Shown: positions 8,052 to 45,285 of the stretch, piece after piece
Position numbering within the stretch: the stretch's first letter is position 1
Layout: the number at the start of each line of letters is the position of its first letter
NCBI GenBank assembly: GCA_951406725.2
Contig: OX597832.1
Location: 34,224,001 to 34,288,000, forward strand
Length of the DNA stretch: 64,000 nucleotides
Source: Octopus vulgaris
Taxonomy: Eukaryota
Reading direction: 5' to 3'
Translations under genes and position numbers: made by a program
Notes under the pieces: generated by a model
Seen by the model: the letters and a program-made list of their open reading frames with translations, nothing else
The model's database searches: none
What the model was told of the DNA's origin: nothing

Positions 8052-8290
8052 TAGGAAGCGTTTACGAAAAAAACAGAAGACGTGGTGTACAAAACAAACA
8101 GATGTATTAGTATAACGCTCAGGTATAGAAAAAGTCTTTTACGTTTCGAGCCTACGCTCTTCTACAGAAAGGGGCACAGAGAAAACAAGGAGAGAAAAAA
8201 ATGTGTGTAGTGGCTAACGATCTATCATGGCGTCTGACTCGGACAGAAGGGTCACACACGAGAAGGAAAGTAGGGGAGATAACAAAGAAG
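8052..8290 (-). mobile_element. Short PLE-terminus-like repeat carrying a hammerhead-like motif
   Basis: Reverse-complement homolog of 43905-44097; abuts (TA)n. Confidence 0.6.
8136..8171 (-). ncRNA. Minimal type I hammerhead-like motif, A6U core variant
   Basis: cttt-CUGUAGA-a-GAGC gtag GCTC-GAAA-CG-UA-aaag; stems I and II pair and stem III is the palindrome ACGT. Confidence 0.55.
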
Positions 8291-10651
8291 CCAATATAAA
8301 TATGCAAACATATTTAGAATGGCTTATATATACCGTCTGTATTTAGATACATGTTGGCTTTGATGAGGAGTATTATCGACATCGAAATGTGTCTTTAATT
8401 TATACTTTAATCGCTCAATGATTTGAACCCTACTCGGTTGTTTCTTGAAAAGAGCTTACCTCTTTGATTTATCATTATCTGTGTGTCTGTCTCTGTGTGT
8501 GTATGTGTGAGTGGGTGAGAGAGAGAGAGAGAGAGAGAGAGAGAAAATGGAGTACATTATACGCGCAGATGCGTCTCGTTAGGTGACTTTTCGGGAAGTG
8601 TCTTGTCTTTTACTCGCCCTTTTTGTTATTTCTATAAGAATATATTTTGATTATTGTGGTATAAAGAACTGAGATACAATGAAAGAACCATTCCCATATA
8701 AGCAATGCTCAGCACATTTGGTAAGAGTTTCAATTATTATTATTATTTAGTATCACTCGGCTTCATACAACTTAACCGACGCACTGAAGTCGCGAATTAA
8801 CCATGCCATACCCCTCAGGCAGAGAGTTGGCAGCCACTCACTAATATTGCAGCTTAGCATGTGGTCCTAGGTATTAGAATTTGAAATGAGCTCGCTTCCA
8901 ATAACACTATGTTACCTGAATAATAATGCTGTGTTACCTGCGTTGACTAATAACGACCGAACGGCTACAAGCCATCTTGGTCTTGCCTCGTGTGTCTCTC
9001 CAAAGCTGCCGAAATGGATTAGTTTGATGAAAGTACGAAACTTTAAGCTGCGTGTTTTGACCAGCTAAGACATCGTCGGACTGTTGGAAGCCCAACTACG
9101 CCTTACATGGCCTAACCTTCGAAGTCACTGTCAACAACATTCTTGTATAAGAATAATAAATTTGTACTCTACACAAATATAGATTTACGTAAAATTGTTT
9201 TTACTATAACTGAACATGAAAACAAAAATTAATATAGACAGACAGACAGACAGATAGACAGATGTTTATATCCTCTGACTTCTCTCTCTGTTTTATTATT
9301 TCGTTGCTATATTTATATATTTATATATTCGTTTTCGCTTACTTGATCTTGTTATTTCTATACTTTTCTTTCTTTTCTTTCTTTCTTTTTTCTCTTTTAC
9401 ACTTTTGTCTTTTCTGTCTGACAGTTTCTCTCTCTCTCTCTCTCTCTTCTTTCTGTCTTTTATGTTTCTTCTCTACCCTATTTATTCTCTATTTTGTGTT
9501 TTCTATCCCCTTTTCTCTCTCTCTCTCTCTCTCTTTCTCTCTGCCTCCCTCCCTCCCTTTCCCTTATTTCTCAGCTCCTTTGCACCTTTCTCTGCCAATT
9601 GCTTTCCGCCTACTTCTCCTTCAAAATATTTATCTTTGCCTGGCCATTGACCCAACTCGAAACATTAGTTTTCGGTAACTTAATGCAATAAAGTGTCTGC
9701 TGATGATCCGTTGTGGTTAAACATCCATTTGAGTTTGGAACAAATAATGCAAAGATTCCAGAAAACCACAAGGCTGAAACAGAGAAACAAAGAAGAGGAA
9801 TTTCTCATTATTGCAATTTCTCCGACATTTTCTCCGTATTAGCTAGTAATCCTACTAAGTACGGCAAATTTTCACCATTATACTGGAAGGAGACTCAATC
9901 ATGATAATGTACGTGAAGCTCAACACTTAGTAGTAGTAGTAGTAGTAGTAGTAGTAGTAGGTGTAGTAGTAGTAGGTGTAGTAGTAGTAGTTGTAGTACA
10001 TCTATTTGTACAATAACACATACAATACACACACACACATTCATGTGCACATATTTATAAATACGCACATTTACATACATATGAATGTGCATATATATAT
10101 ATATATATATATATATATATATATATATATATACCGGAGTAAATACATAAATACGAACGGGAACGTGAAACTCTGAGTAACAGTTTTTGTGATATTTCTG
10201 CTGCTTTTCAATAAATCATATATATATATATATATATATATACATACATATATACATATATATATATATATATATATATATATACATACATATATACATA
10301 TATATATACATATATATATATATATATATATATGCATCCACATACATTGGCATATATATTTCGATTAGTGTGTTTACAACTGAAGGAAATATGCTCCGTA
10401 CCTAGAGTAGAATGTGCATAATTTATTGGAAACTGAAGTTGGTTATGTTTTGTTGCAATTTTGTAGCAACATTTAACATCGCGAATAAAACAGAGATAAA
10501 ACAGAGAATGAAACAAAAATACACAGCGACTGTTCTAACAATGGAATACATTAAACCATAGAACAAACGTAAATAGAGCACAACAACTCCACTAGATCCC
10601 GTACCTATTGTAATATACCTACAACACATAAGACGTTTTATGTTTATCAAA

Positions 10652-10837
10652 GAAGGTAGTGAGTCGGCCAAATTGAGAGCCATTCAAACAAAATGCTTAA
10701 TGCCATTTCTTCCGGATCTTAACGTTTTGCGTCAAAATTCCACCCTAAGTCAACTTTGTCGATAAAATACATACCGTTTGTAATCGACTGACCCCTTTTC
10801 TATGACTGTTGGTCTTGTGCCAAAATTAGAAAGCATT
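10652..10837 (+). mobile_element. SINE family A, degenerate copy
   Basis: Similar to 59432-59633 and 44351-44510 (aaatgctta..gtcaactttg..gtcgataaaat..aatcgact..cttgtgccaaaattagaa). Confidence 0.6.
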
Positions 10838-11534
10838 GTTTATCAAATACATTCCTAAATATAAAATAGATGAATGTATTAAAACCCTATAAAACTGAGC
10901 ACAAAATGCATCATACCAAAACATAAATTAGCATTAATTATACACGACAAAAATATTCTATATTTAAAGTTTTTTTATCAATAGTAAACACCAATGGTCA
11001 ACAGGCGTTAAAAGTTTGGTTGTAAATGTGAAAGTTGTAAACTTCACGACTCCTACAGTTACATAAGTCTCAAAATCAAAACACTCTTTCGCCGGCTCAC
11101 ATGAAGCAACGATTGCAGTGTACCACAACACATAACGTGCACACAAAAAAAGGCTGATACCAAAACATAAGTAGATATTATGACTATAACGTAAAGAATT
11201 CTGAAAATTTAAATCTATAATTTTTGATTAGTCGAAAATTGACAAATGATAAAGGAAGCAACATTCATAGCAGAAAACAGAATATTGCCTACGCCTAAAA
11301 ATGAACGATTAATGACAGCAAACTCAAGATATCGCTCGAACGACTAATAGCAGTGGCGACTGATTTTGTCTTAGCAAGTAGACGAATACCGCAGTTAATT
11401 GGTCTTTTCGAAAAGCATTTGCATTAAGTATGATACACAGATAGCTATTCTAATCTAATTCTGCTTCTGTTCCATACGCACACATACGCACCCACATTTA
11501 TGTGTGTATATACATATATACACATACACATAAT

Positions 11535-11822
11535 GGACTCTCCCGTCGAAGACGACGTATGAGCTCTCCTCTTTTGTGGAATGAACTGCACAAATGATTT
11601 GTTTATAGTGATCAAATGTTCGTGCCACGCATTAACTCACTTTCTCCATCAAATAAACGTTGTCTGAACGGGTGCACCGTGTGCCACGCGTCAGCTGTCA
11701 AAGTGATCGCAGAGAAACGTGAGATGAAGTGTTTTGCTCAAGAACACGGCGCACCACTCGGTCTAGGAACTGAAACCACGACCTCTTGATCGCGAGTGCA
11801 ACGCCCTAACCACTAGGCCATA
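11535..11822 (-). mobile_element. tRNA-derived SINE (family C)
   Basis: Minus-strand head TGGCCTAGTGGTTAGGGCG (A box) ... GGTTTCAGTTCC (B-box-like), followed by a non-tRNA body. Confidence 0.7.
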
Positions 11823-11826
11823 TATA

Positions 11827-43904: not shown

Positions 43905-44097
43905 CAAAGCCATCAATCTGTAGCCACTACACACATTTTTTTTCTCTCCTTGTTTTTTTTTTTCTGTGTCCCTTTCTTAGAAGAGCGTAGGCTCGAAACG
44001 TTAAAGACTTTTCAATTCCCGAGCGTTATACTAATACATCTGTTTGTTTTCTATACCACCTGTCTTCGTCTTTTGTTTTTTCGTGAATTCTCCCCCT
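43905..44097 (+). mobile_element. Short PLE-terminus-like repeat; hammerhead core has lost G5
   Basis: Homolog of 8052-8290; cttt-CTTAGA-a-GAGC gtag GCTC-GAAA-cg-tt-aaag at 43972-44006. Confidence 0.6.
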
Positions 44098-44350
44098 ACA
44101 CACACACATACACACACACACACACACACACACACATATATATATATTATATTGTTAATCAAATATATTCAATGAAAATACAATATGCTGAATTTCAAAT
44201 AAGTGCTCTTGGTAGGGAAATGTCGAAAAACCTAAATGGTATTCAAACATTTAATAAGAGCGATTATATATTATAAAATAAGAGCAGGAAAATTTACATT
44301 AAAAAATCATTACAGAAGATATACGTCCAAAATAATATTGTATTAATAGA

Positions 44351-44510
44351 CACGCCGGGCGTAATGCTTTGCGATATTTCGTCTGTCTTTACGTTCTGAG
44401 TTCAAATTCCGCTGAGATACACTTTGCCTTTCATCCTTTCGGGGTCGATAAATTAAGAATCGATTGACCCCTTCCCCAAAAATTTCGGAACTTGTACCTA
44501 GAGTAAAAAA
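44351..44510 (+). mobile_element. 5'-truncated SINE family A with 17-bp TSD
   Basis: TSD aatattgtattaataga at 44334-44350 and 44511-44527; B box GAGTTCAAATTCC. Confidence 0.85.
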
Positions 44511-44530
44511 AATATTGTATTAATAGATAA

Positions 44531-45285
44531 TTATAGAAAGTATGTAAAGTATAAAAGCCATCTCAATATGGCTAACCACTAAGGGTGGGTGTTACTGTAG
44601 CCTTTTAGCCCCAGGAGATCATCGTCTCCAGCTGGCTTTAGACACCCTTTCAGTGCACTTGAAGTATTTGCAAAGGGAGGCCATCCCTTCCTCGCAAGCC
44701 TGAGTGATTCGCACGGACCGGTTTCGAGATTATTGTCTCTTATCAACGGGTAAGGGCACTGAAAGTGTGTCTAAAGCCATCTGGTGACGATGATCTCCTG
44801 GGGCTAAAAAGCTACAGTAACACCCCCACTTTGTGGTTAGCCATATTGAGATGGCTTTTATACTTTACATTGTCAAGCGGTTACTGTTTACATCTCGCTC
44901 TGAGATTTAATAATGCTTACAGTCAGTATTTCGAAATCAGTGGCAGACGTCACTAGAAAAACTCTTATATATTTGCAAAGCAGGCCTTGTCTTTCATCGT
45001 AACCTGGTGGTTACCGCCCGTTGATAAGAGACAATAATCTCGAAACCGGTCCGTACGTATCACTCAGGCTTGCGAGGAAGGGATGGCCTCCCTTTGCAAA
45101 TACTTCAAGGGCACTGAAAGGGTGTCTAAAGCCAGCTGGAGACGATGATCTCCTGGGGCTAAAAAGCTACAGTAACACCCCCACTTTGTGGTTAGCCATA
45201 TTGAGATGGCTTTTATACTTTACATTGTCGAGCGGTTACTGTTTACATCTCGCTCTGAGATTTAATAATGCTTATAGAAAGTATG
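44531..45285 (+). mobile_element. Non-autonomous hammerhead-bearing (retrozyme/PLE-like) insertion: inverted segment plus about 1.5 tandem monomers, 14-bp TSD
   Basis: TSD ttatagaaagtatg at 44531-44544 and 45272-45285; direct repeat 44752-44919 = 45107-45274 (period 355); 44542-44750 is an inverted copy of about 45017-45225. Confidence 0.85.
45015..45057 (+). ncRNA. Minimal type I hammerhead motif, U3:A8 core, GUC site (second copy on minus strand at about 44710-44750)
   Basis: cgcccg-UUGAUAA-GAGA caataa TCTC-GAAA-CCGG-UC-cgt(a/g)cg. Confidence 0.7.

Follow-up and report, generated by a model that had tools for sequence, protein, structure and literature searches.

Predicted minimal hammerhead ribozymes with all four Watson-Crick pairs at core positions 3 and 8 in amplified repeat families of Octopus vulgaris

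A stretch of 64,000 nucleotides of the Octopus vulgaris genome (NCBI GenBank assembly GCA_951406725.2, contig OX597832.1, positions 34,224,001 to 34,288,000 of the forward strand; this whole stretch is called the window) holds repeats of dissimilar sequence which share the layout of the minimal type I hammerhead ribozyme, and it raises the question whether the tertiary pair between core positions 3 and 8, C3:G8 in the canonical core, has been exchanged among them in a compensatory manner and what would keep it complementary. In the genome, all four Watson-Crick 3:8 pairs occur as amplified families, A3:U8 included. We consider it likely that the motifs are minimal type I hammerheads and that the master copies of these families were selected for a cleavage-competent fold; the 3:8 complementarity across amplified families would then probably be owed to this selection. 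Self-cleavage of the motifs is itself a prediction, the strong evidence for the motifs being of a comparative kind.

All seven motif copies listed in a first-pass annotation of the window are present, each with helix I, core, helix II, GAAA, a palindromic or near-palindromic segment, UH and helix I', and positions 3 and 8 are complementary in every one of them. The five dissimilar repeats proposed there stand as five families; the GUGAACA pair and the UUGAUAA pair each are one inverted insertion, so that the second copies are inverted arms and not extra families. The proposed series of C3:G8, U3:A8 and G3:C8 was likewise recovered, though the annotation missed the A3:U8 families, and the core CUGUAGA, which had been placed in this series, keeps C3:G8 and is unusual for its U at position 6. 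In three window motifs the helix II junction has an additional unpaired base. When positions 3 and 8 were left free, a descriptor found four window motifs, compared with a mean of 0.08 in local dinucleotide shuffles, none of 300 shuffles reaching four and only 25% of the shuffle matches being 3:8-complementary. In its strict form it missed the copy at 39522 because of a helix II mismatch and both UUGAUAA copies because of weak helix I, and it gave five matches in 400 kb of evenly spaced genome, too few for statistics. An Rfam scan of the window showed no hammerhead among the 150 matches listed of 409, those listed being microsatellite-driven and below gathering scores.

Each window motif is a member of a repeat family, and these families have between about 150 and 17,000 exact copies apiece in the 2.8-Gb assembly (227 contigs); DNA searches returned 635-2,921 first-look candidates per window family. 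Copies were counted with exact patterns carrying N at core positions, in which position 8 was never fixed, position 3 was fixed in several, and U4, G5, A9, GAAA and U16.1 were fixed. Match totals refer to the whole genome, pair tallies are hand counts of the first 100 matches listed in chromosomal order, and controls for family-specific patterns gave 0 matches. In every family examined 91-99 of the first 100 exact copies are complementary at 3:8, and mismatched combinations are thus nowhere near as common as matched ones. The G3:C8 family (F4) has 6,024 matches, 95 of 100 being G:C and 5 single changes; the family of the CUGUAGA core (F5) has 16,848 (95 C:G), with U at position 6 in 95 copies and a variable position 7 (42 U, 24 A, 21 C, 13 G). 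The canonical F1 gives 416 matches (95 C:G), the lineage of the UUGAUAA family F3 gives 147 (96 U:A), and the CCGG-type class, which combines U3 with an ACCGGU helix III and in which the UUGAAAA family F2 is dominant, gives 2,751 against 112 in the control, with A8 in 99. Outside the window families, family U counts 1,604 matches (99 U:A), and a short-helix-II class without U3 counts 1,476 against 7 in the control, divided per 100 into 86 A3:U8, 5 G3:C8 and 9 mismatched copies. CG-type motifs number 15,644 with C3 and 1,951 without it, the latter against 1,014 in the control (an excess of about 940).

Relaxing the 3:8 pair genome-wide, here by exact patterns with position 8 free, is what brought out all four pairs as amplified families. 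In the classes tallied, which are not an exhaustive census, non-canonical exact matches amount to roughly 27,000 and canonical ones to roughly 15,000, and about three times as many exact matches would be obtained once positions 3, 6 and 8 are relaxed. The expectation that searches for CUGANGA alone would largely miss such motifs is therefore borne out in number, with the restriction that more than half of the non-canonical matches belong to the A6U family, which has no 3:8 swap. Two generic patterns served as leads only, as the G3 pattern (955 matches) fell below its control (1,735) and shifted registers swelled the count of the A3 pattern. In locus L152 a U·G core next to an open reading frame turned out to be one duplicated locus with 2 matches genome-wide and no subfamily, and the G·A cores of L256 and L257 were put down to decay among the copies of a U:A family (1 of 100 listed matches).

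The flanks of fetched loci contained six further families, all 3:8-complementary. Twenty lineage representatives were picked by hand, the majority state of each family being taken: eight are U:A, seven C:G, two G:C, two A:U and one C·A. Nineteen of the 20 are thus complementary, which none of 200,000 permutations of position 8 reached, a value that overstates independence because the lineages are related, and that is to be discounted accordingly. Position 7 is free across the lineages (A in nine, U in five, C in five, G in one), as expected for a hammerhead, and N17, free in the fetched representatives, is never G. Avoidance of a trapping N3-N17 pair was rejected as a rule, A17 being found in three U3 lineages. 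F1, F2, F3 and most other lineages fit the CUGANGA ... GAAA ... UH core or the published U3-A8 variant. The canonical letters at positions 3, 6 and 8 are absent in F4 (G3:C8), in families T and S (A3:U8 or G3:C8) and in F5 (U6), and as predicted ribozymes these four families depart from the published minimal type I hammerhead consensus. F4 and F6 have similar motifs, and a kinship between them was rejected as their flanks are without homology. A further G3:C8 core, GUGACCA, was seen in L258 (G000:C1:163548974), with an F4-like helix II and no flank homology to F4.

Regarding the helices, G10.1:C11.1, a pair required by descriptor and patterns, closes helix II in 20 of 20 representatives, and helix I has 3-7 pairs in all 20, although the genome-wide patterns did not ask for it in R, S, T, U and F12-F14. 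In the main A:U family, T, helix II has 2 bp and helix I 3-5 bp. An extra base follows position 9 in F4, F5, F6, F9 and F11, and F1 has a bulge. The helix III segments (ACGU, AAUU, AAUAUU, ACCGGU, ACGCGU and ACUCGGAGU), which were partly built into the searches, are perfect palindromes of 4-6 nt or the 9-nt near-palindrome of F1 in 17 of 20 cases, and their self-duplex energies range from -1.7 to -9.7 kcal/mol, with the exceptions of F4 (-0.2) and F6 (+2.2). The palindrome of the F3 lineage (for example G000:C1:192399638-192399684, L111) was seen to vary as a unit between CCGG, CUAG and CUGCAG; such a second compensatory series supports pairing between two copies.

Both bases of the 3:8 pair also switch inside two homologous families. 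One of them, family R, is built from 358-360-bp non-coding units, often in tandem with up to seven motifs per locus, and is about 62% identical to the F3 unit of the window. It gives 339 exact matches (control 0), with 43 C:G, 48 U:A, 9 C·A and 0 U·G per 100, and its units are 82-92% identical between pair states. When 40 trimmed units (at most two per locus, none shorter than 230 nt) were placed in a tree with F3 as root and columns 3 and 8 removed, the U:A units formed a basal grade, all C3 units were joined at 100% support, and a C·A clade (93%) was sister to the C:G clade (75%). The simplest reading of this tree, and a fairly probable one, is a path from U:A over C·A to C:G with the intermediate retained, which is favoured by the loop II and some 5' characters that C·A units share with U:A units. 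Alternatively, since C7 and G8 make up a CpG, the C·A subfamily might have arisen from C:G by a CpG-type reversal, which seems distinctly less probable, and the small remainder falls to recombination. Family S gives 211 matches (control 0), with 68 A:U, 26 G:C, 6 other pairs and no G·U per 100; an A:U copy (L243) and a G:C copy (L271) are 91% identical over 316 nt. As a separate observation, F7 is a tandem unit of 370 bp with U3:A8 (L007:2594 and 2964, minus strand), and a third 3:8 switch may lie in its rare relative in L227, whose two matches, one U·G and one C·A, do not suffice to assign a pair state.

Regarding the carriers of these motifs, four of the five window families (F1, F2, F4 and F5) lie at the 3' end of Penelope-like retroelements with reverse transcriptase (RT) and GIY-YIG. 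The link to pseudo-LTRs (long terminal repeats) of Penelope elements made in the first-pass annotation holds for these four; F3 is a tandem retrozyme-like unit of about 355 bp. Locus L151 is a near full-length Penelope-like element in which RT and GIY-YIG frames lie between two F2 motifs separated by 4.4 kb; its coding region is split into two frames, and partial tandem pseudo-LTRs with an inverted, 5'-truncated copy were seen there, the inverted copy lying on the 5' side. Pfam scores in L151 are 33.5 bits for RVT_1 (cut-off 29.6) and 22.5 for GIY-YIG (0.1 bit short of the cut-off of 22.6). For F5, tblastn showed in L141 and L149 an unbroken run of RT thumb, GIY-YIG, 3' untranslated region and motif. 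F4 is tied to an RT and GIY-YIG frame (GIY-YIG 21.5 bits, RT by eye) via the overlapping copies L198, L199 and L201, and an RT frame 2.4 kb behind F4 in L153 was dismissed as its carrier, being a separate insertion. By eye and at one locus each, F1 in L036 has a GIY-YIG-like frame about 950 nt upstream on the same strand, and a decayed copy of family T in L170 lies about 270 nt behind a GIY-YIG-like frame. A (TA)n run, taken as the insertion end, begins 40-150 nt past the predicted cut in most copies of F1, F2, F4 and F5. Several families, F3 and F4 among them, show inverted motif pairs. An F3 copy in L152 lies directly beside a 5'-truncated RT/GIY-YIG frame, but following this frame to its 3' end does not lead to F3.

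In fly Penelope an intron ends at a similar position to the acceptor-like sequences seen near two of our motifs, one just 5' of the F2 core (Table 1) and one 20 nt 5' of the F4 core (L199:4210-4253). No spliced genomic copy of an F2 or F4 pseudo-LTR intron was found among the copies examined; candidate spliced F4 retrocopies proved to have ragged truncations as 5' ends, and contigs covering the F2 element from four sequencing runs, whose RNA status was guessed, contained no joint at the F2 motif and no pile-up of ends, a feature beyond what contigs can reveal. The positions of motifs and other features are collected in Table 1; the window is also rich in (TA)n microsatellites.

Table 1. Hammerhead motifs, their carriers and further features of the window, in window positions.
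Feature	Positions	Strand	Core (3:8 pair)	N3/N17	Predicted cut after	Details
F5 minimal type I hammerhead	8136..8171	-	CUGUAGA (C3:G8, A6U)	8167/8140	8140	extra A after position 9; helix III ACGU
5'-truncated element end holding F5 motif	about 8004-8287
F1 minimal hammerhead	18533..18593	-	CUGAAGA, canonical (C3:G8)	18588/18538	18538	helix II 7-8 bp with one bulged C; helix III ACUCGGAGU
Element end holding F1 motif	about 18425-18915
F2 minimal hammerhead	19151..19196	+	UUGAAAA (U3:A8)	19158/19189	19189	helix III ACCGGU
3' end of young Penelope-like element holding F2 motif	about 18924-19290
Branch-point-like, pyrimidine-rich, CAG sequence just 5' of F2 core	19100-19157	+				AG is helix I itself
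F4 minimal hammerhead, first arm	39427..39477	-	GUGAACA (G3:C8)	39470/39434	39434	extra G after position 9; 7-bp helix I; helix III AAUAUU
F4 second motif, inverted arm	39515..39565	+	GUGAACA	39522/39558	39558	one mismatch in helix II
Inverted insertion carrying both F4 motifs	about 39259-39665
F3 minimal hammerhead	45015..45057	+	UUGAUAA (U3:A8)	45021/45051	45051	helix III ACCGGU
F3 tandem unit	about 44752-45284	+				period 355
F3 motif of inverted partial copy	44710..44752	-	UUGAUAA	44746/44716	44716
Inverted partial F3 copy	about 44542-44750	-
GIY-YIG-like fragment, Penelope type	478-1065	-				no Pfam match
GIY-YIG-like fragment, Penelope type	36389-36700	+				48% match to L151 endonuclease
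975-amino-acid intact-looking frame	3165-6092	+				LINE (long interspersed nuclear element) type; endonuclease-like and RT-like motifs by eye; between (TA)n tracts
277-amino-acid open frame	14247-15080	+				kind unassigned, by eye
Decayed non-LTR RT region	30266-32793	-				by eye
6.7-kb (TA)n-type array	46453-53133
Transposase-like fragment	58265-58771	+				by eye

How could such motifs act? A transcript through tandem copies would carry two motifs, whose palindromic segments could pair to form helix III; the 3:8 pair would then form and position the ribose of residue 8, whichever its base, as general acid, and cleavage of the RNA after N17 would yield templates of unit length, possibly circular ones. 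In published work the 2'-OH of residue 8 was found to be essential, and G8C was partly rescued by C3G (PMC8495972). Cutting would presumably be slow and occur in dimers or with the help of an element protein. The 3:8 pair is likely to change in two single steps, and selection may be loose in each round and act on masters over the long term, mismatched and A6U masters still having spread.

Several points weigh against this proposal. The largest family, F5, is fixed for A6U (95 of 100 copies), and the natural A6C core cuts at less than 0.1 per minute (PMC3088659). Pairwise mutagenesis of a type III hammerhead found rescue by the G:C swap alone and low activity after every other single or double change in that part of the core (PMC9901934), which makes the activity of A3:U8 and A6U cores the least secure step. 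The C·A subfamily of R has multiplied (9 of 100 listed copies, at least six loci, one of them a tandem trimer), the documented within-family switches are only two, and CG-type copies without C3 mostly are U·G, A·G and G·G single changes, that is, decay of dead copies. Families T and U have only a 2-bp helix II, helices I and II are poorly populated in the predicted folds of five representatives, and the mean pair probability in the predicted ensemble is below 0.35 in F10, F11, F13 and S. In the Penelope-clade element Poseidon of Anolis, insertion in vitro had no need of cleavage, cleavage required the protein of the element, and no RNA-sequencing ends were found at the site (PMC11167929); eight of nine frog retrozyme dimers did not cut (10.64898/2026.07.22.740005). 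Cleavage, RNA ends and circular RNA of the octopus families are predictions from sequence. The diverse, selected ribozyme repertoire of the first-pass annotation gains from the complementarity and the switches within families, is qualified by the amplified C·A subfamily, and is a ribozyme repertoire by prediction.

Part of this evidence, namely the Poseidon cleavage mutants that left insertion unchanged and the RNA that needed protein to cut, the A6U core fixed in about 16,000 copies, the spread of the C·A subfamily and the families keeping only 2 bp of helix II, also suits the explanation that the elements retain the hammerhead fold with its 3:8 pair as a structural signal for binding of their protein or for the placement of reverse transcription, with cutting incidental or lost in several families. 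We hold this to be unlikely, though it fares best among the alternatives, as the 3:8 pair belongs to the active conformation, being present in the tertiary-stabilised structure but absent from minimal ground-state crystals (PMC3884650), as N17 is never G although left free, and as plant and fungal Penelope elements carry canonical, active hammerheads (PMC4209133). Still less probable is activity as monomers, through unrecognised contacts between helices I and II or a long helix I, in place of dimers or protein-assisted cutting: F4 does have a 7-bp helix I with a mean pair probability of 0.95 and a self-duplex of only -0.2 kcal/mol, F6 forms no self-duplex, and most genomic copies are single. 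However, single copies are accounted for by 5' truncation, helix III is palindromic in nearly all lineages, and for a minimal Penelope hammerhead described earlier the monomer failed to cut, while dimer and trimer did so weakly (PMC4209133). The least credible alternative, a founder core frozen in each family whose 3:8 complementarity stems from chance, shared ancestry or pattern choice, can appeal to position 3 being fixed in several patterns, to lineages sharing ancestry and copies within a family not being independent, and to the majority state being chosen for each family, yet position 8 was never fixed in the census, chance matches are just 25% complementary, all four pairs occur, and two families switch both bases between flanks that are 87-91% identical.

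We therefore retain selection of masters for a cleavage-competent fold as the preferred reading. A bolder version of it would see here the first natural complete 3:8 covariation series, with substitution paths still alive (U:A to C·A to C:G, and A:U to G:C) and a 17,000-copy A6U core, all cut in vivo through chaperoning by a Penelope protein that relaxes the core rules of naked RNA, most motifs having escaped earlier censuses; this is possible, though we find it doubtful. Penelope hammerheads may cut in vivo, though in vitro they do so slowly and insertion in a purified system can proceed without it; repeated compensation of a pair of the active conformation is evidence of an evolutionary kind for selection on the catalytic fold. 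Families R (U:A, C·A and C:G in 87-92% identical units) and S (A:U and G:C in 91% identical context) are natural matched sets and ready substrates for measuring the passage of a catalytic RNA through a mismatch valley.

Przybilski and Hammann reportedly found in 2007 that how well each of the four pairs is tolerated depends on the surrounding helices, and Lunse, Weinberg and Breaker reportedly described in 2017 about 150,000 small variants with reduced helix III, tied to Penelope elements and cleaving as dimers. In the open literature searched, whose coverage ended short of that 2017 paper on Penelope variants, natural G3:C8, A3:U8 or A6U hammerheads were not found; one match for natural variant cores proved to be about twister ribozymes. 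In Poseidon (Frangieh et al. 2024), C3G or G8C alone abolishes cleavage and the double mutant partly restores it (PMC11167929); the exchange was engineered there, whereas G3:C8 is natural here. The first natural U3-A8 covariation was described by Perreault et al. (2011), together with tolerance of a 2-bp helix II, and the section on core variants in that paper names U3/A8 as the sole swap, without the G3:C8, A3:U8 and A6U cores found here (PMC3088659).

The non-LTR retrozymes, relatives of the pseudo-LTRs, consist in a mollusc of non-coding units in tandem, about 350-390 bp long and each holding a type I hammerhead (Cervera and de la Pena 2020, PMC7229834; 10.64898/2026.07.22.740005), and R, F3 and F7, with units of 355-370 bp (tandem periods 358-360, 355 and 370), match them. 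The text covered of these papers mentions no 3:8 variants; circular RNA was shown there and is a possibility here. The closest likeness is with the Penelope hammerheads of Cervera and de la Pena (2014, PMC4209133), which have in common with ours the type I layout, the short helix I, the optional extra base after position 9, G10.1:C11.1, the palindromic helix III, the location in pseudo-LTRs and inverted pairs 100-700 bp apart. The presence of U3:A8 in Penelope pseudo-LTRs, proposed in the first-pass annotation and found here, had already been published in that study, with about 1,300 matches in Penelope elements of Schistosoma mansoni. Among the 56 metazoan representatives in its supplement, 53 are C:G, two U:A and one U·G, all with A6 and none with G:C, A:U or U6, a restriction that arises because the descriptors demanded these cores. 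Natural U3:A8 is thus already known, as is rescue by G3:C8 in the laboratory, while families with G3:C8, A3:U8 or A6U are apparently new as far as the literature searched extends: compared with the Penelope hammerheads of 2014, the octopus genome adds families with G:C and with A:U that run to hundreds or thousands of copies, a family with A6U, and exchanges of the 3:8 pair within homologous families.

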